Counted from the stretch's first letter, positions 114-12,098 are shown. The stretch is 20,000 nt of DNA from an uncultured virus (IMG/VR IMGVR_UViG_3300021256_000092) (IMGVR_UViG_3300021256_000092), one strand, 5' to 3'. Program-made: numbers and translations. Notes: a model not told the origin generated them from the sequence alone.

Positions 114-152
114 GTGTTAGTATAAATTTAAAGTCAAATGGAGGAAAAATTA

Positions 153-971
153 ATGAAGTATTCTAATCGTGGCATTTTCGTAGGAATGAGTAGTGAATTT
201 GCAAAGGCAATGTTTGGCAAGATGATGCTCAATGCTAGAGCAGAGGAAAATCCTAATCCCAATTCTAATCCCGACCCCAACAATCCAAATGGTGGCAATC
301 CGACACCCGCACCCACAATCAATTATGAAGACCTTATTTCTAAAGCGCGGGCAGAAGAAAAAGCGAAACAGTACAAAGAGATTGAGAGGTTAAAGACTCA
401 GATTCAGACCCTTACTGAACAGCATAACAAGGATTTGCTTGTTGTAGCTGAACTGAATGAGAAGAGTAAGGCGCTTGAGACTAAACTTACAGAAGCGGGC
501 AAGGGAGATACCGAACAGGTTAAGACTCTTAAGAGTGAGATTGAGAACCTTAAGACACAGGTTTCAACTCTTACTGCTGAAAACGAGGAACTTAAGAAGA
601 ACACCGTTGAAGAGTCCGAGGTAGAAGCTAGAGTAAGAGCACAGTTAGAGGCAGAGTACACAGTAAAGAACCACAAGGTTGAAATCCTTGCACAGCATAA
701 GGATGATTTGCTTGTCCCCGAGCTTGTTATGGGTGATACAGTTGAAGCACTTGATGCATCACTTGAACAGGCTCTTAAGAGAAGTGAAGAAATCCGTGCT
801 AAGATTGGCGGTACTAAGGAGAAGAAGACAACGACCCCTACAACACGTACTGCAAAGAGTCCGAGTGCAGGTGGTGATTCTATAGGAAACTATTCTGCTG
901 AGTATATCGCTTCTTTAGACCCACGTTCTGAGGAATATAAAGAGTTCCGCAAGAAATTGGGTTTAAGATAA
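153..971 (+). CDS. Capsid scaffolding protein
   Basis: GGAGG at 140-144 favours ATG 153 over ATG 138. N/P-rich linker, long E/K coiled coil, basic C-terminal helix (YKEFRKKLGLR); immediately precedes the capsid gene. Confidence 0.85.
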   Translation: MKYSNRGIFVGMSSEFAKAMFGKMMLNARAEENPNPNSNPDPNNPNGGNPTPAPTINYEDLISKARAEEKAKQYKEIERLKTQIQTLTEQHNKDLLVVAELNEKSKALETKLTEAGKGDTEQVKTLKSEIENLKTQVSTLTAENEELKKNTVEESEVEARVRAQLEAEYTVKNHKVEILAQHKDDLLVPELVMGDTVEALDASLEQALKRSEEIRAKIGGTKEKKTTTPTTRTAKSPSAGGDSIGNYSAEYIASLDPRSEEYKEFRKKLGLR

Positions 972-1035
972 ATAAGAAGAACTGCAACCAAAACCATTAA
1001 ATAAAAAGCTACAATTTCCTAGGAGGTTAGTGTAA

Positions 1036-2088
1036 ATGAAAAAGTACACACTTTTGGCATTAATTCGTGCTTTAGCACTTAATGCTTCTTTAGCAATTAA
1101 TGCTTATGCTGATGTTACAACTGCGGTCTCAACTGAGAATCAGGGTGTTCCACTTTCAGCGGCAATTCGTGCAGTATATTCAAATGAAATCGAGTTCAAG
1201 GCTCTTCCACTCATGCGTTTCGCTCAGTTCGCTACTGAGAAAACAGAGTTAGGAACACAGCCGGGTCTTTCCATCTCAATGCTGTCATATGACAACCTTA
1301 AGCTTGGTGGCAAGCTTGTTGAGAATGTGCCTATGCAGTCACAGGCTCTTGCAGGTTCTCTCAAGCAGATTACCGTTACTGAGCATGGTAACGCAGTATC
1401 AAATTCTGAACTTCTCATTGAGTCTTCTTTCGATGATGTTATGGCTACAACCACAACTCTTCTTGGCAGAGACTACGCTATGGTTCTTGATACAGAGCTT
1501 CGTGATACAGCTCTTTCGGGAACAAATGTAATCTACGCAAGAAAAGCGAACGGAACAGTAGTTACAAGCAGAGCAGGTCTTATCGACGAGTGTACCTTTA
1601 AGGTATCTACTGTTAAGGATGCTCTTGAGATTCTTTCAACAAACAATGCTCCAAAGCGTGAGGGCTATTGGATTTGCTTTGTTCACCCACATCAGAGCAG
1701 AGGTCTCAGAGATGATTCTACTTGGATAAATGCCTCAAACTACGGCGCTCCCGAACAGCTTTTCAATGGTGAGATTGGAAGAATTGATGATACTCGTTTC
1801 ATTGAGACTTCTATCATGTCAAACGGCGCAGCTTCCGCAACAAATCCGGCTTATGATGAGACTCTTGTTCACGGCTATGAAGATGCAGACCACAATGTAA
1901 ACGCAGTTGATGTTTACAAGGCTTGTATCTTTGGTGACAGATACTACGGTATCGCTTGGGCGCTTCCTGTAGAGCTGAGAGATAATGGCATACAGGACTA
2001 CGGACGTACACGTTCCCTTGCTTGGTACGCTATCTATGGTACAGGCATTCTGAACAATGATTACGGTGTAGTTATCGAGACAGCCTAA
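1036..2088 (+). CDS. Major capsid protein (N4 gp56-like, HK97 fold)
   Basis: AGGAGG 1021-1026; 350 aa; motifs CFVHPHQSRGL, LFNGEIGRIDDTRFIET, DYGRTRSLAWY typical of N4-gp56-family capsids; follows scaffold. Confidence 0.9.
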   Translation: MKKYTLLALIRALALNASLAINAYADVTTAVSTENQGVPLSAAIRAVYSNEIEFKALPLMRFAQFATEKTELGTQPGLSISMLSYDNLKLGGKLVENVPMQSQALAGSLKQITVTEHGNAVSNSELLIESSFDDVMATTTTLLGRDYAMVLDTELRDTALSGTNVIYARKANGTVVTSRAGLIDECTFKVSTVKDALEILSTNNAPKREGYWICFVHPHQSRGLRDDSTWINASNYGAPEQLFNGEIGRIDDTRFIETSIMSNGAASATNPAYDETLVHGYEDADHNVNAVDVYKACIFGDRYYGIAWALPVELRDNGIQDYGRTRSLAWYAIYGTGILNNDYGVVIETA

Positions 2089-2110
2089 GTCTTAGAAAGC
2101 GAGGGTGCTT

Positions 2111-2488
2111 ATGTCTAAGAAATATAACTATATCAAACAGGCTATTTTCTATGCTAACGAAAAGCCCGATATGCTTGCAAAGCTCCTTGAGGGAGTTGTT
2201 TCCGATGTAGTTGCAAAGACAGAACTTTTCGGGGCAGATTCAATCGAGATTCCCACAGGTGAAACACCTAATACTTCAACCTACACAGCAAAGACTTTCA
2301 GCCAGTTCGGTGATGAGATGACTACTCCGCCTACAATTACTCTGAAAGCAGAAGTAACAGGTGTTACTTTAAGTGAGGGTGTTGTAAGCGTTGCTAGTAC
2401 AGCGACAGCTGAGTCCTTTACTCTTGTAGCAACAAGCGGTTCTGTTACATCAGAAAAGGTAGTAGCATTGAAAGTTGCTAATGCGTAA
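2111..2488 (+). CDS. Putative capsid decoration protein with Ig-like beta domain
   Basis: GAGGG at 2101-2105 favours ATG 2111; T/V/S-rich beta-strand pattern (GVTLSEGVVSV...FTLVATSG); between capsid gene and a terminator. Confidence 0.55.
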   Translation: MSKKYNYIKQAIFYANEKPDMLAKLLEGVVSDVVAKTELFGADSIEIPTGETPNTSTYTAKTFSQFGDEMTTPPTITLKAEVTGVTLSEGVVSVASTATAESFTLVATSGSVTSEKVVALKVANA

Positions 2489-2500
2489 ATGTAAATTTTA

Positions 2501-2540
2501 GGGGAGAGGGAGACTATAATCTTCCCTCTCCTTATTTTTT
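2501..2540 (+). terminator. Rho-independent terminator
   Basis: ggagaggga ... tccctctcc 9-bp stem followed by ttatttttt. Confidence 0.85.
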
Positions 2541-2555
2541 AGGAGGAATTTTATC

Positions 2556-2900
2556 ATGGCATTTAAGAAGAATAAGAAAACTGAGGAAGCTGTTGAGACT
2601 AACAACATCGAGATTAATGATGCAGTAGAGAATGCAGAAGAGACACCACAGGAGAGCGCAGAAGAGACTCCAAACGTGGAGAATGTAGATGCCAAGCCTG
2701 TTGTTGAGGTAAATCTTTCAGCGCCGAAAGAAGATGAGAGGACAGAAGTAAAAGAAAAGACCACCCGCATTAAGATGAAAGTAGACCACAAGTGCTTTAT
2801 CGGCGGTCAGTGGTATTATCTCGATAAGGGAGAGATTTACAATGTGCCTTTCAATGTTAAAGCTATTCTTTGCAGAGCGGGAGTTTTAGACCCACTTTGA
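2556..2900 (+). CDS. Small head-associated hypothetical protein
   Basis: AGGAGG 2541-2546; acidic N-terminus with repeated AEETP, compact C-terminal domain (HKCFIGGQWYYLDKG). Confidence 0.7.
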   Translation: MAFKKNKKTEEAVETNNIEINDAVENAEETPQESAEETPNVENVDAKPVVEVNLSAPKEDERTEVKEKTTRIKMKVDHKCFIGGQWYYLDKGEIYNVPFNVKAILCRAGVLDPL

Positions 2901-2921
2901 TTTTAATGCGGAGGTAAGTCG

Positions 2922-3752
2922 ATGATTTTTACGCAACAGGAGTTGATACAAGCATTAAGACTTGCAGTTAATGTTGATAATCAAGAACAGGGAGTAGATG
3001 GAAGACTTAATATGACAGATGATGAGTTGATGCTCTTCATTAAATTAGGTCTTTCAGAAGTGTACCCATCTTGTGAGACCCTTGATGATTTATCTATTGG
3101 TGCAGATTACCCTATTATCCTTGTATCTAAAAAGGAACTCTATCTCAAACTCGCTGTTACTTATGCTCCTTGGTATAATATTGCCGCTGAGGGTGGAAAT
3201 ACCCTTTCCCGCTCACAGAGATTTGAGCATTTTATGAAGCTTGCAGAGAATGCGCAAGATGAGTATGAGAATTGGCAGAAGACAGACGGAGATATAGACC
3301 CCGAGACAGGAATTTCGGGAGTGAGAACTTATGATGTAAGACTCAATAAGAATCACTATACTGAGAGAAACTACATTTTGGCTAAAGCTCCTGTAGTGAG
3401 AATAAAGATTGCAGAGGTTACAAATGACAGTGTTTCTTTCTCTTGGAGTTCTGCGGGAAATGACCATTTCGGAAAATACCTCGTTTATCTTAGTGAAAGT
3501 CCTGTAGTAGATATGTACCTTGACGGTTCAAAAGCAGAGAATAAGATAGCCGAGGGTGCTACACTTGTTCTGTCTACAATGGACTTCCACAATAACTACA
3601 AGAGAGTTTCGGGATTGAAAGCTGATACTACTTATTATCTCGCTGTTTTCTCAATAGAGCGCAATCAGAGATTCGGCTATAAAGAAAAAGAATTCAGAAC
3701 TGCCGAAGAGTTTGTGGCAGAAGAAACCTCAGTTGATAGTATCGGGGGTTAA
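2922..3752 (+). CDS. Putative head-tail adaptor with C-terminal fibronectin type III-like domain
   Basis: Helical N-terminal part in the adaptor position; C-terminal VTNDSVSFSW...YLVY...VSGLKADTTYYLAV matches the FN3 pattern. Confidence 0.6.
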   Translation: MIFTQQELIQALRLAVNVDNQEQGVDGRLNMTDDELMLFIKLGLSEVYPSCETLDDLSIGADYPIILVSKKELYLKLAVTYAPWYNIAAEGGNTLSRSQRFEHFMKLAENAQDEYENWQKTDGDIDPETGISGVRTYDVRLNKNHYTERNYILAKAPVVRIKIAEVTNDSVSFSWSSAGNDHFGKYLVYLSESPVVDMYLDGSKAENKIAEGATLVLSTMDFHNNYKRVSGLKADTTYYLAVFSIERNQRFGYKEKEFRTAEEFVAEETSVDSIGG

Positions 3753-3754
3753 AG

Positions 3755-4285
3755 ATGGATAAAGATATTAGAGACGCTTTCCTTGATGGTACACAAGAAG
3801 TCTTTTCTATCCTGTTCACAGATGGATTGAATGATGGAATAAATCTCTACCTTATGGACTTAGAACACACAATTCCGAGTCCATACGGAGAGACTAAAGT
3901 TAAGTACTATCATAAGCCTGTAAGACTTGTATCAAAAATGCGGTCTTCAATGACAGAAAGAACCGTAGCAATAGCAGACTTGGATATACATGAAGAGCCA
4001 AATTTTGTTGTTACGGCGAAAGATTGTATTCTGAAAAATATCCCGCATGAGACAGAGGAAGATTTTGAATACCTCAGAAAGTCATACATAGAGTATAAGG
4101 GGTCTTTCTATAAAGTAGATAATGTGAGACTCAGAGGATATGTTGAAGATACATTTCTATTCATAGTTTTTGTCTGTGAAATAGATTTAGACGTTCATTC
4201 CTTAATGGTGTGTGAAGAACCACAAGAAGAGACAGCAGAAGTTTCTGTAGAAGAGAGTACTCAAGATGAGCCACAAGAGGAATAA
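3755..4285 (+). CDS. Putative head closure / neck protein
   Basis: Position between adaptor and neck gene; YIEYKGSFYKVDNV beta motif; acidic tail. Confidence 0.5.
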   Translation: MDKDIRDAFLDGTQEVFSILFTDGLNDGINLYLMDLEHTIPSPYGETKVKYYHKPVRLVSKMRSSMTERTVAIADLDIHEEPNFVVTAKDCILKNIPHETEEDFEYLRKSYIEYKGSFYKVDNVRLRGYVEDTFLFIVFVCEIDLDVHSLMVCEEPQEETAEVSVEESTQDEPQEE

Positions 4286-4287
4286 TC

Positions 4288-4764
4288 ATGGGCTTTAAAT
4301 TAGAAATGCGCGGGGATTGGAACAGAGCAGGTATCTTTATGAAGAACCTTGCAGTAAAACTATTCCCCGCTTATGAAGCAAAATTTTATGAAGATGGAAA
4401 TATGATACTTGAGAAGATACGTGGTCACATATCTTCTCAAGATTTGGATTGGGCTGAATTATCACCACATACAATAGAATTAAAAGGTGGTGATGATACT
4501 ATCTACGTTGAGACAGGGAAGCTCAGAGATGGGCTTGAAGTAAGAAGAGTAAAGTCTGTAGCTAGAGGAGTAAGCATCTTTGTAGGAGCATCACCATGGA
4601 AGAAGCATGACGGAGTCCCCTTTGACAGTCTTATGATTTGGCTAGAGTATGGTACTGATAGAATGCCCGCAAGACCTTTGATAAGACCCACGTATGAAGA
4701 GGTTAAAGATTTAATCACTAAAGAGTGGGAAGCTGAGTTGAAAGATATAATACATAAGTGTTAA
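4288..4764 (+). CDS. HK97 gp10-like / virion morphogenesis neck protein
   Basis: Motifs ETGKLR and EYGTDRMPARP characteristic of this family. Confidence 0.75.
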   Translation: MGFKLEMRGDWNRAGIFMKNLAVKLFPAYEAKFYEDGNMILEKIRGHISSQDLDWAELSPHTIELKGGDDTIYVETGKLRDGLEVRRVKSVARGVSIFVGASPWKKHDGVPFDSLMIWLEYGTDRMPARPLIRPTYEEVKDLITKEWEAELKDIIHKC

Positions 4765-4776
4765 GGAGTAAGTACT

Positions 4777-5370
4777 ATGTCTTCAAATGTTTGGTATCAA
4801 GAAGTTGATATGGGGCTTGTGAATGAAATCCGTTCAAGTGTGAAATACATAAATGAGAGCGGAGAAGAAGTTGCAATCAAGCCTAAAGCTGTTTGGGTGA
4901 GAGACCCCGAAGAAGAATTTAAGGAAGAGAATTATCCGTGTGTGACAGTATCTTCTTTGTATGATAGATTTGACCCAAAGAGATGGAGTATAAATCCGTC
5001 TTTCATAGGAATTGATAAGCCTAACAATCAGATTATCCTACAAGACCCATCAGTTCCTTATAATCTGTTTTATCAGATTGATTTTTGGGCGCGATATAAA
5101 GAAGACATTAACTGTATGACAAGAACATGGTTACAGAATCATAATAGAGCATTCAATCTTACAGTTACAGATGATGGCGGTGAAGTAAGAAGTTGTAATG
5201 CAATCAAGAATGAGGATATGAAGACAAGTAACCTAGTTAAAGTAGGTAAGAGACTCTTCCACTCCTTTATTTCTTACTCGATATGGGTAGAATTAGACCC
5301 GAATATAAATTATAATAAACCTATGGTTGCAGTAGTAAGTATTGATGCTCAAGAACAGGAGGGAACTTAA
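4777..5370 (+). CDS. Putative tail terminator / completion protein
   Basis: YPCVTV...PYNLFYQIDFWA pattern; position just upstream of the sheath. Confidence 0.6.
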   Translation: MSSNVWYQEVDMGLVNEIRSSVKYINESGEEVAIKPKAVWVRDPEEEFKEENYPCVTVSSLYDRFDPKRWSINPSFIGIDKPNNQIILQDPSVPYNLFYQIDFWARYKEDINCMTRTWLQNHNRAFNLTVTDDGGEVRSCNAIKNEDMKTSNLVKVGKRLFHSFISYSIWVELDPNINYNKPMVAVVSIDAQEQEGT

Positions 5371-5595
5371 ATGTCTTTTGTTCTAAAGAATGTGAGTGTG
5401 AACAGACCTATTTGTTATACACTCAATGATGGTAAGACCACTTTAAGGCTCGACCCAAAAGAGTCTACCACAATCGAGGATAATCAGTTAGATGATTACC
5501 TTAAGAATTTATCTAAGGCAAAATTTTTAATCATCACACACAAGGATGATAAGAAGGATGCTAAAAAGAGTAACTCTTCTTCCAAGAAGAATTAA
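5371..5595 (+). CDS. Small hypothetical protein preceding sheath
   Basis: 74 aa; GGAGG upstream; abuts previous stop; lysine-rich C-terminus. Confidence 0.65.
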   Translation: MSFVLKNVSVNRPICYTLNDGKTTLRLDPKESTTIEDNQLDDYLKNLSKAKFLIITHKDDKKDAKKSNSSSKKN

Positions 5596-5606
5596 GGAGG
5601 AATAAT

Positions 5607-7043
5607 ATGGATTTGAATAGACCTGATGTGTACTTACAGGACGTTAAAACAGGCGCTTCACCTATTCAGTCTGCTTCCACCACTATTGGTATTCTCATTG
5701 GCGCCGCTAGAAGTGGTGTTGTCGGTGAGCCTGTACTCTGTGGTTCATGGACTGAGTTCATAGCGAACTTTGCTAATGGTCTTGAGACACCTTTCATGTC
5801 AAATAGTGACCTTCCTTATGCAGTTTATGACTTCTTTGCAAATGGCGGACAGCAGGTATATGTTGTTCGTGTAGCAAGTGATTCTGCGACAAAAGCATCT
5901 GTAACAGGTGCTACAAATACAGACCTTACGATAACTGCGAAGTATAAGGGAGTGTCCTCGACAGTAGTTAAAATCAAGAAGAATGAGGATTGGACGGATG
6001 CTAACAAGCTGTTTGATGTAACTATTTCTGCATCTTCCGCAGAAGACGGAACTGTTACAATCAAGGAAGTTACTCCTAGTACAATCGTTAATGCTATCAA
6101 CTCCAACACTTTTGCAAAAGAATGGGTGGTAGCTTCGGGTAATGTAACAACCCTTGCAGAAGAGACAATGACACTCATTGGTGGTGTTGACAATGTTGCG
6201 GGATATACAGATTCCGTTTATATTGGCGGGCTTTCTGCTTGTGATACAATAGATGATGCTTCATTTATTGCAATCCCCGGACAGACTTCTGTGGCTGTAC
6301 ATGATGCGATTATGACTTATGCAGACAATCATAAGTTATTCCCTATTCTTGACCCGCCAGTTAATTCAGAAGTTAAGGCTGTTAAGACCTACAGAAAGAG
6401 CATCAGCGCTTTCACGGGTGCTTTACCCTATCCTTGGATTTATATGTATGACCCACTCACTGAGACAAACAAGCTGATACCGCCATCAGGCTTCTACATG
6501 GGTGTATCTGCAAGAATCATCGGTGAGAGAGGTGTAGGAAAAGCACCTGCGGGAACAGAAGCAGTTGTACGTGGAGCAGTTGCACTTGAAAGAGTCCTTA
6601 CAGATTCCGACATTTCACAGCTTAACCCTGTGGGCGTTGTCTGCATCGTACCAAAAACAGGCGCGGGAATTGTAGTTTGGGGAGCAAGAAGTCTGAGTTC
6701 AGATGCACAGATGAAATACGTAAGTGATGGGCACATCAATTACAATATCAAGAAGTCTCTGTACCGTGGAACACAGTTCGCAGTATTTGAGTCAAATGAC
6801 GAAGCTCTTTGGAGCAGAGTAAGGGCTACCTGTACAGACTTCCTTGAGACCTTGAGAATCAACAAGGTTCTGAAAGGTAGTACTCCCGCAGAAGCATATT
6901 ATGTTGTATGTGACAGCACAAACAATACACAGACTTCAATCGACAACGGCATTCTCTATGTTGATATTGGTTATGCTCCTCAGAAGCCCGCAGAATTTAT
7001 CGTCTTTAGGTTAGCACATAACATGGCTAACGCATCAGCATAA
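5607..7043 (+). CDS. Contractile tail sheath protein
   Basis: RPDVYLQ, DFFANGG-x-YVVRV, IPPSG, VVWGARSL, VFESNDEALW, GYAPQKPAEFIVFR sheath motifs. Confidence 0.95.
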   Translation: MDLNRPDVYLQDVKTGASPIQSASTTIGILIGAARSGVVGEPVLCGSWTEFIANFANGLETPFMSNSDLPYAVYDFFANGGQQVYVVRVASDSATKASVTGATNTDLTITAKYKGVSSTVVKIKKNEDWTDANKLFDVTISASSAEDGTVTIKEVTPSTIVNAINSNTFAKEWVVASGNVTTLAEETMTLIGGVDNVAGYTDSVYIGGLSACDTIDDASFIAIPGQTSVAVHDAIMTYADNHKLFPILDPPVNSEVKAVKTYRKSISAFTGALPYPWIYMYDPLTETNKLIPPSGFYMGVSARIIGERGVGKAPAGTEAVVRGAVALERVLTDSDISQLNPVGVVCIVPKTGAGIVVWGARSLSSDAQMKYVSDGHINYNIKKSLYRGTQFAVFESNDEALWSRVRATCTDFLETLRINKVLKGSTPAEAYYVVCDSTNNTQTSIDNGILYVDIGYAPQKPAEFIVFRLAHNMANASA

Positions 7044-7055
7044 GGAGGTAGAGAA

Positions 7056-7532
7056 ATGAATAAGCTTTATAATTTCATCAAGAATATTTCCATAAATGCT
7101 GAGGCAGTTCGTTCCTTTGAAGCTGACCCATTACAGGCATTCAGATTCAGAGTTTCAATCCCCGGCATTCCATCACAGGTGGGATTTCAGAAAGTCGGCG
7201 GTCTGAGCAGAGAGATGGAAGTCGCAACTTACATCGAGAATATGTTCGACCATGAACACAAATTGCCGGGAAGAGAAAAGGTAGGAGATGTAACCTTTGA
7301 GAGAGGTATGTATGCTGATTCTTACTTACAGAGTCAGTATGAGAGCATCTTTACAAACAGGGCGAAAAGAACTACAGTCGTGGTTCAGATTGTAGACCGC
7401 TTTGGAAACATCCGTAAAGAGTTCAGATGTGCAGAAGCTTGGTTCAGCAAGTATGAATGCGGAGACCTCGATGCATCTTCAAATGATGTTATCATCGAAA
7501 CTCTTACAATGGTTTTTGAGTATTTCCTGTAA
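7056..7532 (+). CDS. Tail tube protein, T4 gp19-like
   Basis: AAGGAGG upstream; DPLQAFRFRV, GFQKVGGL, KLPGR, VTFERG, LDASSNDVIIETLT motifs. Confidence 0.92.
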   Translation: MNKLYNFIKNISINAEAVRSFEADPLQAFRFRVSIPGIPSQVGFQKVGGLSREMEVATYIENMFDHEHKLPGREKVGDVTFERGMYADSYLQSQYESIFTNRAKRTTVVVQIVDRFGNIRKEFRCAEAWFSKYECGDLDASSNDVIIETLTMVFEYFL

Positions 7533-7639: not shown

Positions 7640-8491
7640 ATGGCATTAAAGAAAACAGATGATGTTCGCAAGAGTACTGAGGAAGTTATCGACGAGATTG
7701 AGAATGAAGAGTACCGAAAAGATTTGGGTTCTGTAGTTGTTGATGAAAATGGTATTGTGAGAGATGAGGAACTCCTCTGTCCCGAAGAGTATGAGGGTCA
7801 GCTTATCAATACTTTCTCTTACCGTGAAATGAACGGTAAAGATGAAGAAGCCATTAACAAAGCAGAAGTAAAAGTTAATGGCGGAAAGCTTGTCAATGTT
7901 CTACTTGAGAGAACAGTAGTAGCACTTGGCTCAATCACGAAGAAAGAACTCGGGCAGAGAAAGTGGGGAGAACTTATCCGTAGCCTTACAGGTGGTAATC
8001 TTGACTACATGATGACCCGAGTAAGAAAGATTTCAAAAGGCGCTACAGTAAAGTTTACTCACAAATGCCCTAATTGTGGTACACTAATAACAACAGAAGT
8101 GGATATAGATGAGTTTGAGATTACTCCATTCTTAGGAGAAAAGAATATTCCTTTTGAACTTCCATACAAGGGGTATAAAGATACAAAGGGAATATATCAC
8201 AAGACAGGAACACTCAGACTCGCTAATGGTTTTGACCGTGAAGTTATCTATCCACTTATGAAGAAGAATAATGTTTCTGCGGAAACAGTTCTTATGACAA
8301 GGCTCATGTCCTTTGATGATGGCACTCCTGTTATTCAGAATAATGTGAGTGAGATGTCTTTGAGGGATAGAGATTATATTGTTGATTTGATAAAGGAGAA
8401 TGTATTCGGCATTAAGCCCGTTCTTGATGTTGAATGCCCTAACTGCGGAGAAACTTTAAGTGGAGAAGTAGGACAGTCTGATTTTTTCTAA
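7640..8491 (+). CDS. Tail assembly chaperone (lambda gpG position) with two CPNC motifs
   Basis: Between tube and tape measure; two CPNCG motifs; ends on slippery T TTT TTC. Confidence 0.8.
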   Translation: MALKKTDDVRKSTEEVIDEIENEEYRKDLGSVVVDENGIVRDEELLCPEEYEGQLINTFSYREMNGKDEEAINKAEVKVNGGKLVNVLLERTVVALGSITKKELGQRKWGELIRSLTGGNLDYMMTRVRKISKGATVKFTHKCPNCGTLITTEVDIDEFEITPFLGEKNIPFELPYKGYKDTKGIYHKTGTLRLANGFDREVIYPLMKKNNVSAETVLMTRLMSFDDGTPVIQNNVSEMSLRDRDYIVDLIKENVFGIKPVLDVECPNCGETLSGEVGQSDFF

Positions 8492-8726: not shown

Positions 8727-11700
8727 ATGGATTTTGGTTTAGGACTAATTTTATCATTCACAGACAATGCTACTGCGGGAATTGAGAGAGCTAGTAATTC
8801 TATTACTCAATTATCACAGATAGCACAAAGAAGTGCAGATTCATTAGGAAGTTTAGGTCAATCAGCTTCTTTAGATATTCTTGCACGAATGTCAGATAGA
8901 GTCGGGAACGCATTCACTACAATGGGTGCTAAGGTCCTCGGCTCTATTTCTGGTATTATAAATAGTGTTAATTCTGTTGGTAGTGAAGTATTTTTTGCGC
9001 AAAATGCTTTTACTACACTCTTTGGAAGTTCTGAAAAAGCGTCCGAAGAAATGAAGAAAATCAAAGATTATGCGGCTGAAAGCGCAATTAACTATAGAGA
9101 CTTACTTTCTATGGTAAGACTACTTAAAACTAGAGGTATTGATGCCTTTCAACAGATAGCGACAAAAACCTATGAAGCATCACAAGGAGCAGAAGGGTAT
9201 AGTCAAACTCTTATGGCTTATGCCTCAGATTTAGCTTCTTTTAATCCTCAGATGAAGAATGTCTACGGAGAGGGTGTTCAAGCCGCAATGGGAGCTATTA
9301 GTGAGTATGTAGCAGAAGGTAATAAGAGACTTTTGAAGACAGGAACGTCTCTTGATATTACTCAAATTTTAGGAGAAAACATTGGAGCTACTATTGAAGA
9401 AAGAAGTAAACAAGTTGCTAATCTTCTTGAACAAATGAATATGGTAGGACAAACTGAGTTGATGAAAGGTACTCCTACACAGATAATTTCTAGTATGGAA
9501 GATAAATTATTCACCTTTCTTTCTAAAGTCGCTCAAGAAAGTGGTGTATATGAAAAATATACAGGAATATTATCTCAAGTAGCCGAATTAGTAACTGATA
9601 TAACTGATGCCGATATGAACGCATTTGCTAAGAGCTTTGGGGAAGGAATTAATGCTGTCCTCAATCCTTTAGGAAAGTTAGTATCTACCCTTGTAAAAAC
9701 AACTAAGAATTTAATGGATATTCTGAAATTGCATCCTAAGTTAATGAAGTTTGTAACTATGGGTGGCACACTAACAGGAGTATTTCTTGTTGTTTCGGGT
9801 GTAATATTTAAAGCTGTTGGAGCTTTTTCCACTTTTGCCAATGCTATTTCTACATTTGCGGGAAGTTCTATAATGACAGCTTTTACAACAGGATTTTCTT
9901 CCCTCGTGAGTACTCTTGCACCTTTAGCACTGCTTTTTGGCTCTCTTGCAGTAGCATGGGGAACAGATTTTGCGGGAATAAGAACTGATGTAACAGGTTT
10001 TGTGGCCAATATAATAGAATCCTTTAATAATGCTAGGGATATAGTAAGTCTTGATGCTGACAGTATGATGCAGAGAATTAATCTGCTGAGAAATTCGGGA
10101 GATTTTTGGAGCAATATTACAATAGGATTCTCTGAATTACTTGTAGTAGGACAAGCCCTCAGTGAACTGTTTGCATCCGAAGATGGATTTACTCTTAGTG
10201 CAGAAACTTTTCAGAAGTTGGATGAACTCGGATTACTTCCTCTGATTGAAAGATTTCTTGACGTTAAAGCAAGATTCCTCGAATTTAAAGATGGATTTAT
10301 AAGAGGTTTTAATGAGATGAGTGAAACTGTAGGTGGATTCTTTGATTCACTTACAGAGAAAGCAGACGGAACTATCTTTGAGAGTTTATTAAGTTCTCTG
10401 AATGATTTTCTTACTAAGCTTAGTGGAGCAGACTTAGGAGCATGGAATGATTTTGGAGCTACAATAGGAAATGTTGCAGGAGCACTTCTTATGTTAGCAC
10501 CCGCGATTGCACTTATTAAGTCAATTTTCCCCGCCATTGTAACAGGAGTTAGATTAGCAATAGGAGCATTTAACCTTTTTGAAGGAGCTTTTGAGTTATT
10601 CTTAGATATACTATTTGGTTCTGAACGAGTAGAGAGAGTTGCTTATAGCATAGGACAACTTCTTGGAAATGCATTAAAAAATATAGGGCTTGTACTACAA
10701 AACTCACTTCAAGAGGTATGGCAATCAGTACTTGGGTTCTTTAGTGGTCTTTCAGCACCCGTTATTGCTGTGATTGCAGTAGTTCTTGCTAGTATCTTTG
10801 CTTATGCATTTACCTGTTGGGATGATTTCCGCGCACAAATTGACAGCTTAGTGGGTAATTTCACAGAGGGACTAAACGCTATAATTGAGAGTGTAGCGCC
10901 CGCTTTTCAGCAGATATGGGATGCCTTAAGTGGAGTGGGAGCACCAATAATAGAATCAGCAATAGGTCTGTGGAATACATTAAAAGAGAGCATAAGTGCC
11001 ATAATAGATACAATAGTGAATAGTACAGCCTTTCAGATGGTTGTCCTTTATCTTTCCGCAATAGGTGAAGTGATTATGGGTATAGCTGTTCCACAGCTTA
11101 ACACTCTTTGGAATATGTTTGTTTCCGCTTTCACTGCAATGATGGATATATCCGCGACCGTTGTTTCTTCAATAATCAATGTCATAGGCTCATTTGTCAC
11201 AACGATAATGGATATTGTTTCGGGAATTTTAAACATCATTACAGGTCTGATAACAGGTGATGGAGACCTCATATTACAAGGAATAACCACAATACTGAAC
11301 TCTATAGGAAGTTTTATCACCACATTTATTTCTTCGGGATTAAATATTGTAAATTCACTAATTAAAGGTGGAGTGAGTTTTATAGTCACAACATTTACTG
11401 GAATAGTAAGTAATATAACAGGAGCATTAAATACTATTCTCAGCACATTTAGCAGAGTATTGGGAACTATATACTCTACTGTTTCCGAAAAGTTCAATCT
11501 TGTAGGAACAACTATAGGTGGAATAATGGATACTGCCGTGTCTGCCGTACAGTCAGCTATCGAGAAGATAAAGTCTTTCTTCTCGGGTGAGTTCCCTATT
11601 CCTAAGATTAAACTCCCGCACTTTAAGATTTCGGGTAAGTTGAGTCTCGACCCGCCACAGATACCATCAATAAGTGTTGATTGGTATGCTCAAGGTGGTG

Positions 11701-12098
11701 TTTTCAATAGACCTAGAATCATTGGTGTAGGTGAGAATGGTGCCGAAGCAGTAATGCCATTAGAGAATAATCTCGGATGGATAGACACTCTTGCAAATGA
11801 AATAGGAAATAGAATGAGAGTAGTTCCGACAGCTAATAACTACTACTCAGAACAGCCCTTAGTAAGTGGAAGCACTTATAACAATTATTCTTCAACCACA
11901 ACAGCGCCCGCAAATAATATAGATAACAGCGTAGTATTTAATAGTGGCGCAATCGTAGTAAATGTTGCTAATGCAAGCATGGAGGAAGCTGAAAGATTTG
12001 CGCAGATAGTTATGGAGAAGATACAGAGAAAGACACAGGTAGACCGAGTAATGAACTACAAGAGTTTGAATGCGCCGGATAACGAGTTCATTTTCTAA
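8727..12098 (+). CDS. Tape measure protein
   Basis: 1123 aa; GGAGG upstream; helical, hydrophobic segments, W/F-spaced repeats; C-terminal YAQGG...VGENGAEAVMPL motif. Confidence 0.92.
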   Translation: MDFGLGLILSFTDNATAGIERASNSITQLSQIAQRSADSLGSLGQSASLDILARMSDRVGNAFTTMGAKVLGSISGIINSVNSVGSEVFFAQNAFTTLFGSSEKASEEMKKIKDYAAESAINYRDLLSMVRLLKTRGIDAFQQIATKTYEASQGAEGYSQTLMAYASDLASFNPQMKNVYGEGVQAAMGAISEYVAEGNKRLLKTGTSLDITQILGENIGATIEERSKQVANLLEQMNMVGQTELMKGTPTQIISSMEDKLFTFLSKVAQESGVYEKYTGILSQVAELVTDITDADMNAFAKSFGEGINAVLNPLGKLVSTLVKTTKNLMDILKLHPKLMKFVTMGGTLTGVFLVVSGVIFKAVGAFSTFANAISTFAGSSIMTAFTTGFSSLVSTLAPLALLFGSLAVAWGTDFAGIRTDVTGFVANIIESFNNARDIVSLDADSMMQRINLLRNSGDFWSNITIGFSELLVVGQALSELFASEDGFTLSAETFQKLDELGLLPLIERFLDVKARFLEFKDGFIRGFNEMSETVGGFFDSLTEKADGTIFESLLSSLNDFLTKLSGADLGAWNDFGATIGNVAGALLMLAPAIALIKSIFPAIVTGVRLAIGAFNLFEGAFELFLDILFGSERVERVAYSIGQLLGNALKNIGLVLQNSLQEVWQSVLGFFSGLSAPVIAVIAVVLASIFAYAFTCWDDFRAQIDSLVGNFTEGLNAIIESVAPAFQQIWDALSGVGAPIIESAIGLWNTLKESISAIIDTIVNSTAFQMVVLYLSAIGEVIMGIAVPQLNTLWNMFVSAFTAMMDISATVVSSIINVIGSFVTTIMDIVSGILNIITGLITGDGDLILQGITTILNSIGSFITTFISSGLNIVNSLIKGGVSFIVTTFTGIVSNITGALNTILSTFSRVLGTIYSTVSEKFNLVGTTIGGIMDTAVSAVQSAIEKIKSFFSGEFPIPKIKLPHFKISGKLSLDPPQIPSISVDWYAQGGVFNRPRIIGVGENGAEAVMPLENNLGWIDTLANEIGNRMRVVPTANNYYSEQPLVSGSTYNNYSSTTTAPANNIDNSVVFNSGAIVVNVANASMEEAERFAQIVMEKIQRKTQVDRVMNYKSLNAPDNEFIF

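Follow-up and report, generated by a model that had tools for sequence, protein, structure and literature searches.

Small-x-Ala leaders on scaffold, capsid and tail tube proteins of a contractile-tailed phage, and a phage-encoded S26 peptidase as a candidate processing enzyme

Leaders on three assembly proteins

We have analysed a stretch of 20,000 nucleotides (nt) from the uncultured virus IMGVR_UViG_3300021256_000092 (IMG/VR), referred to below as the window. Open reading frame (ORF) calls and searches with Pfam and PHROG profiles show that the 20 kb constitute the structural module of a contractile-tailed phage. Three of the encoded proteins, the scaffolding protein, the major capsid protein (MCP) and the gp19-like tail tube protein, carry short N-terminal extensions, here termed leaders, which end in the motif [LI]-N-A-x-A. 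The features involved are as follows, with lengths in amino acids (aa) and a slash marking the predicted cut.

140..144, + strand, Shine-Dalgarno sequence GGAGG of the scaffold gene, 8 nt before the ATG at 153
153..242, + strand, scaffold leader, 30 aa, MKYSNRG...MMLNARA, ending L-N-A-R-A / EENP
243..971, + strand, predicted mature scaffolding protein (acidic/Pro-rich linker and coiled coil), between portal and MCP
1021..1026, + strand, Shine-Dalgarno sequence AGGAGG of the MCP gene, 9 nt before the ATG at 1036
1036..1110, + strand, MCP leader, 25 aa, ending I-N-A-Y-A / DVTT
1111..2088, + strand, predicted mature MCP, HK97-fold family phrog_1357 / PF13252
7044..7049, + strand, Shine-Dalgarno sequence AGGAGG of the tube gene, 6 nt before the ATG at 7056
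7056..7106, + strand, tube leader, 17 aa, ending I-N-A-E-A / VRSFEADP
7107..7532, + strand, predicted mature gp19-like tail tube (PF06841, E 6.8e-28, residues 28-157)

An earlier reading of this DNA, made from the sequence alone (the sequence-only reading), had placed the ORFs, the leaders and the motif at these positions, and all were recovered, with GGAGG or AGGAGG lying 6-9 nt before each ATG. Another ATG, at position 138, overlaps the scaffold Shine-Dalgarno sequence and is unlikely to be the start codon, because scaffolds of related phages begin with MRKNRG, which aligns with MKYSNRG. None of the three genes has an in-frame start codon at its predicted mature end, and the family profiles start past the leaders, phrog_1357 from residue 23 of the MCP and PF06841 from residue 28 of the tube. 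The scaffold matched no Pfam or PHROG family and homologous scaffolds were located by tblastn.

The motif is short, and A-x-A in general is common, with 42 instances in the window ORFs, so that a fortuitous resemblance, or a set of misassigned start codons, had to be considered. The pattern [LI]NA.A occurs only three times among the 6,429 residues of 25 window ORFs, once each near the N-terminus (first 35 aa) of scaffold, MCP and tube. When residues were shuffled within proteins, none of 5,000 rounds yielded three such proteins, while two proteins were obtained in 2 rounds and one in 134. Given also the strong Shine-Dalgarno sequence at all three ATGs, the absence of downstream starts and the retention of the leaders across hundreds of homologues, we regard chance or misassignment as very improbable.

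Database searches yielded 3,032 homologues of the MCP (E <= 1e-10) and 336 of the tube (E <= 1e-8), and the best 120 of each set were inspected. The leader was found at the same place in the homologues of each of the three proteins, in line with the sequence-only reading of a shared feature, and it conforms to a looser rule, small-x-Ala. For the MCP, [AV][FYH]A occurs within the first 45 aa in all 120 cluster representatives, against a background of 106 in 720 other 45-residue windows. All 120 tube homologues carry [AVIST]-x-A before [DEASV] within the first 25 aa, the residue at -2 being M, E, Q, H, I or T. Among 41 distinct scaffold sites, anchored by a regular expression, -1 is invariably Ala, -3 is A (20), V (17), S (3) or T (1), and -2 is F, H, L, Y, R or K, with leader ends such as LRAFA/DE, LKVFA/DE and MTVHA/EE; in the window, -2 is R in the scaffold, Y in the MCP and E in the tube. 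Moreover, the three ends within one phage tend to be alike: RAFA, KAFA and KAFA in an 84-kb relative (G003), TVHA, NVFA and NVHA in Bacillus phage BCD7, and TAHA, IVHA and TAHA at locus L010. In G003, [KR]AFA occurs only three times in 25,991 aa, namely at the three leader ends. BCD7 carries its leaders on scaffold gp101, MCP gp100 and tube gp092, while a second tube-like protein, gp091, has none.

The window leaders also have the DNA sequence AATGCTnnnGC in common, and the sequence-only reading had therefore offered an RNA signal as an alternative. Alignment of the homologues, a check which it had proposed, showed that the leader end is kept as small-x-Ala with synonymous variation and without conservation at the codon level. 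Four synonymous codons, GCA, GCT, GCC and GCG, are used for the -1 Ala, which indicates that the constraint is on the protein and not on the RNA, and the RNA signal was accordingly rejected. The three extensions are best explained as genuine propeptides of a Firmicutes-associated clade of myophages.

The other genes of the window, in relation to the three leader-bearing ones, are arranged as follows.

1-62, end of the portal gene
153-971, + strand, scaffold ORF, between portal and MCP
1036-2088, + strand, MCP ORF (phrog_1357, PF13252)
downstream of the MCP, small head/neck genes
5607-7043, sheath
7056-7532, + strand, gp19-like tube ORF (PF06841)
after the tube and before the tape measure, baseplate-hub-like protein
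8727-12098, tape measure, followed by baseplate and fibres

An ORF at 2922-3752 contains an fn3 domain (PF00041, E 1.8e-5), and another at 7640-8491 combines a match to T4_baseplate (PF12322) with two Cys-x-x-Cys zinc-ribbon-like motifs. An IMG/VR contig (L001) is 100% identical to the start of the window and extends it upstream by 3.9 kb, with the gene order ligase C-terminus, large terminase (TerL), portal, scaffold. A second overlapping metagenome contig (L132) contributes only about 117 extra bases, and a pattern scan of viral contigs produced no extension of the window genome.

The predicted cut and further candidate substrates

Distant relatives lacking leaders start at the predicted mature ends, the MCP with MANTINTVV or MPSVLNTAV, the tube with MARTIANDP and the scaffold with MPEPIV. 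Furthermore, some leader-bearing tubes have kept an ancestral Met directly after the motif, as in MLKVHA/MARTT, ..EEHQVHA/MARTS and ..KSIFA/MPRT (L063, L076-L083 and L008). A cut after the last Ala fits these data, and not one before the Ala of the kind made by the ribosomal protein L27 protease Prp. The mature starts EENP, DVTT and VRSF predicted by the sequence-only reading fit both the leaderless homologues and the tubes with a retained Met. For structural work, the motif would correct the predicted mature ends of scaffold, MCP and tube.

The tube leader is optional. At L060, L064, L067-L069 and L092 the MCP and scaffold carry leaders and the tube does not, and tubes have both gained and lost the leader with the mature start unchanged. 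This bears on the possibility that the leaders are not removed at all and act as permanent amphipathic tags, serving membrane association, chaperone binding or the control of polymerisation. Such a role would suit their basic and partly amphipathic character, and in staphylococcal phage 80alpha cleavage was dispensable while the scaffold leader was required (PMC5744158). Conservation, however, centres on the final three positions, with -2 unconstrained, which is the signature of a protease site and not of a helix, and the body of the leader is of no fixed length (6 to about 48 aa). Taken with the gain and loss of the tube leader around a constant mature start, these properties make a permanent tag unlikely.

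A second alternative is cleavage of the leaders by host Prp, which processes the capsid and scaffold proteins of 80alpha. The L27 motif is given as MLxx(D/N)LQ(F/L)F'A(S/H)KK (PMC9405229); the Prp cut lies between F and A, and a Prp motif has been noted on a major tail protein of phi13 (PMC5744158). In favour of Prp, a phage prohead protease next to the portal is absent, the leaders of many relatives end in an aromatic residue and Ala (..KAF-A, ..VH-A), superficially like F/A, and three metagenome-assembled genomes (MAGs) with related loci encode long forms of L27 (MLKINIQLFAHKKG, MLKMNLQFFAHKKG and MFKMDIQLFAKKKG). The (D/N)LQ(F/L)F/A motif is nevertheless missing, the leaders ending MLNARA, INAYA and INAEA in the window and K-A-F-A, N-V-H-A or N-A-M-A in relatives. 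The would-be P1 residue is R, Y or E in the window leaders, and the tubes have M, E, Q, H, I or T there; a variable -2 fits the rule of type I signal peptidase (SPase I) and not a Phe-specific Prp pocket. The sequence-only reading had likewise set the motif apart from that of Prp. The N-termini of the L27 proteins in the MAGs are conventional (..IQLFA/HKKG) and are not tracked by the leaders; a Met retained after the last Ala (VHA/MARTS) fits a cut after, and not before, that residue. No Prp was detected in three related phage records.

A true mimic of L27 looks different. One distant relative of 43.6 kb with terminal repeats (G038; L174:378-2679) carries an L27/Prp-like motif (FDPQLFA) on its scaffold, MAKIWFDPQLFA/EG, and its MCP, MMIIPYFDPQLFA/EI. 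An S26-like hit in this genome (L158) was rejected, since it is a helix-turn-helix S24 repressor of the CI type. On the strength of the tube data, the comparison with host L27, the retained Met and the contrast with G038, Prp was demoted to a minor rival, and we consider it a decidedly improbable leader protease.

Cleavage by an SPase I-like enzyme might extend to the terminase. TerL of the main clade is extended at its N-terminus by a segment which ends A-x-A/G or A-x-C/G directly before a conserved R[IV][SP]TTELV. The TerL of the window phage (L001:568-2331) reads ..KLAIRRAEA/GGISTTDLV and that of G003 ..VEKAYA/GRISTTELV. TerL proteins without the extension, from the leaderless relatives and also from BCD7, L090 and L087, begin M-I-T-T-A-E-L-V or similar. 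TerL would thus be a putative fourth substrate, with the start codons of its extensions, that of the window phage included, uncertain throughout. The portal never carries a leader in the relatives examined.

Two other N-termini of the window were tried and rejected. The small ORF that follows the MCP (2105/2111-2488) begins MSKKYNYIKQAIFYA/NE and was considered as bearing a fourth leader, but its homologues conserve the entire N-terminus, with F at -3; counted from 2111, this highly conserved stretch, MSKK..IK.AVFYA/.E, is probably part of the mature protein. The tape measure begins MDFGLGLILSFTDNATAG (8727-8780; ..TDNATA/G) and includes NA.A; variants with NATSG, NASSG or RMSQG identify this as a tape-measure motif and not a leader.

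Other kinds of N-terminus occur further afield. In G043 (L187) the N-termini of the MCP (MKKQISTFNRILTTHSS..) and the tube (MNLRNILTTHNN..) share the motif ILTTH, with no S26 gene in the record, and this may represent another common-leader system. The MCP-like protein of Bacteroides phage BS162P1 (L250:8941-9939), as annotated, starts with a strongly hydrophobic segment of 22 residues, MNTLLFIVVAFVLPFLSGLFFG, which may reflect a wrongly assigned start codon or a different type of leader; S26 was not found in this phage.

A phage-encoded S26 peptidase in relatives

In the interval from portal to capsid the sequence-only reading had recognised no protease gene. The order TerL, portal, scaffold, MCP across L001 and the window bears this out, with none between portal and scaffold either. 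Profile searches detected no peptidase family among 13 window ORFs, and a classical prohead-protease module is lacking.

Related genomes encode a small peptidase of family S26, to which SPase I belongs. In G003 (84,457 bp, 98% complete, MCP 65% identical to that of the window) it is a protein of 126 aa with an N-terminal transmembrane segment and the SPase I boxes, scoring 65.6 bits against PF10502 (cut-off 22.9). It was the sole peptidase among the 80 of 117 ORFs scanned with Pfam, a scan which omitted structural ORFs and short ORFs on the opposite strand. The closest large relative of the window phage, G010, with an MCP 74% identical, also carries S26. In BCD7, gp032 is annotated as a putative signal peptidase I and lies above the PF10502 cut-off; a tblastn search of cultured phages with phage S26 retrieved only BCD7 itself.

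The S26 genes of the relatives lie far from the structural module. Gene gp032 of BCD7 adjoins a SpoVS-like gene and queuosine genes, an arrangement which recurs in G006:C10 and G007:C40. S26 is also followed by a SpoVS-like gene (PF04232 in G003) at L028:2482-3167, L244:1498-2132 and L245:1489-2143, and genes resembling QueC, QueD and QueE together with GTP cyclohydrolase I are neighbours, indicating a 7-deazaguanine pathway.

The phage S26 proteins are 112-150 aa long (112-148 at six-frame loci and 114-149 among the top 120 database homologues). Thirteen of them, of 122-140 aa, share invariant G28, S30, M31, P33, T34, K72, R73, GDN, S98, D100, S101, R102 and G105, with box E (GDN..S.DSR) extending from G92 to R102. 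The database contains 289 homologues at E <= 1e-5, and many of the top 120 are located on contigs of 75-88 kb. Among these 120, the Ser box (S-M-x-P-T) is present in 119 and the Lys box (K-R) and box E in all, and a candidate membrane anchor, defined as an 18-residue segment with a mean hydropathy of at least 1.6, occurs in 118 of 118 S26 proteins. A profile of the family matches solved SPase I structures, including 4nv4 (E 1.9e-14), SpsB, LepB and SEC11, and an AlphaFold2 (AF2) model (mean pLDDT 86.2) consists of a beta core preceded by a transmembrane helix at residues 2-20. With its Ser/Lys dyad intact, the phage enzyme looks active. When S26 and residues 1-45 of the tube were modelled together as a complex, the score was 0.02 relative to a mark of 0.32, which speaks neither for nor against an interaction.

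S26 co-occurs with the leaders. From 80 MCP-related loci, the 22 contigs of at least 60 kb were taken; S26, scored above the PF10502 cut-off, is present in 15 of these 22 and in nine of the ten records at least 90% complete. All nine are leader-bearing, and the one record lacking it, G030, has a leaderless MCP and tube. In leaderless outgroup clades, S26 was found in none of 16 contigs and in none of the five that are at least 90% complete. For IMG/VR records at least 90% complete, nine therefore have leader and S26, none a leader without S26, none S26 without a leader, and six have neither. Streptomyces phage BRock is leaderless and S26 was not found in it.

Both the leaders and the enzyme can be compared with the secretory pathway. 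The leaders have a basic n-region, with a median net charge of +2 to +4 and one or two K/R in the first eight residues, a median length of 17-29 aa and small residues at -3 and -1, as in the c-region of a signal peptide. The h-region of signal peptides, about 7-15 uncharged residues, is mostly missing. The longest polar-free runs in the window leaders are 8, 7 and 3 aa, and among the homologues a run of at least 10 aa was found in 0% of the scaffold leaders, 12% of those on the MCP and 2% of those on the tube. Cytoplasmic assembly is, moreover, not compatible with exporting the capsid, scaffold, tube or terminase proteins. These considerations bear on a third alternative, namely that a host enzyme other than Prp, either SPase I or another cytoplasmic or membrane protease, trims the leaders while phage S26 serves elsewhere, for example on secreted phage or host proteins. 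The A-x-A rule would suit any S26 enzyme, the charge rule suggests that phage S26 faces outward like host enzymes, and some MCP leaders (P0051, P0111 and P0117) do resemble real signal peptides. Yet such leaders are the exception, the virion proteins would have to be exported, and the tracking of leaders by S26 would go unexplained if the two were unrelated; a hydropathy scan of all 117 G003 ORFs, judged by eye, revealed no clear secreted substrate. We therefore think that a different host enzyme is unlikely to be responsible.

The sequence-only reading had envisaged a single protease, either host SPase I or a phage enzyme encoded elsewhere, that would license head and tail tube assembly, possibly at the membrane. 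The second option now provides the best candidate, given that S26 of the relatives co-occurs with the leaders, and the first, via export, finds no support, given that the leaders mostly lack an h-region. We propose that short, basic, weakly hydrophobic leaders ending in an SPase-I-type site (small -3, any -2, Ala -1) would be recognised by a phage-encoded, membrane-anchored mini SPase I homologue with invariant Ser and Lys, which is the most likely protease. It would cut after the last Ala, producing EENP (scaffold), DVTT (MCP) and VRSF (tube), and may also trim the A-x-A/G extension of TerL of the same phage; it might meet its substrates, for instance, on the inner side of the membrane. That S26 removes the leaders, including those of TerL, seems to us about as probable as its contrary. 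The broader proposition, that in a clade of Firmicutes myophages a recruited mini SPase I has become a dedicated maturation protease for the non-secretory leaders of scaffold, capsid, tube and TerL, is more tentative and falls somewhat short of an even balance.

Several points weigh against this proposal. Cleavage and its position are deduced from sequence in every member of the clade. No S26 gene is present in the window or in L001, so that the window phage would have to carry one elsewhere, and both the role of S26 as the enzyme and its access to cytoplasmic substrates are inferred. A further peptidase could lie among the G003 ORFs omitted from the Pfam scan. The best Foldseek match to the S26 model was SpsB (TM 0.60), followed by SEC11 and then LexA and UmuD, none of them at E <= 0.001. 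The co-occurrence is phylogenetically clustered, the leaderless genomes being mostly outgroups, and any clade-specific gene would be expected to yield the same correlation. In a quick tree, used for topology only and with leader states read by eye from N-termini, a leaderless group (L088, L095, L098, L099 and L101) nests with BCD7 and leader-bearers of the L013 type; its members are fragments, 22-36% complete, and the absence of S26 from them says little at that completeness.

The main gap is the access of a transmembrane-anchored S26 to leaders in the cytoplasm. Canonical S26 enzymes face outward, whereas virion proteins are cytoplasmic. An analysis of flanking charges in 14 sequences was ambiguous, and a larger set leans towards the canonical orientation: the N-flank (median 2 residues) is more positive than the 15-residue C-flank in 105 of 118 homologues, so that the charge rule favours a canonical N-in/C-out topology. 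The N-tail of the host-type SPase of one MAG is also weakly charged and, therefore, the charge rule is not decisive.

Both prohead proteases and host Prp are known to process phage capsid proteins at the N-terminus. To our knowledge, no S26 signal-peptidase homologue has been described as a virion maturation enzyme, and a full-text literature search did not bring up any S26 homologue linked to the maturation of phage virions. If the proposal is correct, it would add a protease family to phage assembly and extend processing to the contractile-tail tube and the terminase; on the broader proposition, head, tail and packaging components would pass a common membrane-associated checkpoint, with S26 working on cytoplasmic substrates, and the puzzle would be how a membrane-anchored signal peptidase reaches them. 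The phage group is abundant in metagenomes, as the number of MCP homologues attests, and with BCD7 as a cultured member the proposal is directly testable.

Two other observations concern G003. A reverse transcriptase gene (PF00078; L021:5529-6563) adjoins fibre genes and is possibly part of a diversity-generating retroelement, and a Ro60/TROVE plus vWA homologue is encoded at L023:2563-4275.

Comparison with known processing systems

Classical prohead proteases (HK97 gp4 of S78, T4 gp21 of S77, ClpP-like enzymes of S14 and lambda C of S49) likewise remove N-terminal parts of capsid and scaffold proteins, in their case as the head matures. Their genes lie between portal and capsid, where there is no such gene here, and they act inside the prohead, whereas the candidate substrates of the present system include the tail tube and terminase.

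A parallel in organisation is provided by 80alpha and Prp, with short N-terminal leaders on non-homologous virion proteins, no prohead protease gene, one protease implied from outside the head module and a tail substrate suggested for phi13 (PMC5744158). The two systems differ in their sites, small-x-Ala with -2 free as opposed to (D/N)LQ(F/L)F/A, and in their proteases, a candidate phage-encoded Ser/Lys enzyme of S26 as opposed to a host Cys protease (C108). Here, in addition, TerL carries a site.

With SPase I (SipS, SpsB and LepB; MEROPS S26) the phage enzyme shares the PF10502 domain, boxes B, D and E and an N-terminal transmembrane helix, and the ends of the candidate substrates obey the -3/-1 rule. 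The phage enzyme is smaller, 112-150 aa compared with 173 aa for a host-type SPase I in a MAG with a related locus, and its candidate substrates are cytoplasmic virion proteins with leaders mostly devoid of a hydrophobic core.

Finally, LexA, UmuD and lambda cI (S24), of the same clan, have the same fold and catalytic dyad, and LexA and UmuD were among the fold matches of the S26 model. They are self-cleaving and lack a transmembrane anchor, and the phage protein scores 65.6 bits as S26 compared with 22.9 bits as S24. These proteins cleave after Ala or Cys and before Gly, a preference resembling the A-x-A/G and A-x-C/G sites of TerL here, and they demonstrate that the clan can work in the cytoplasm.

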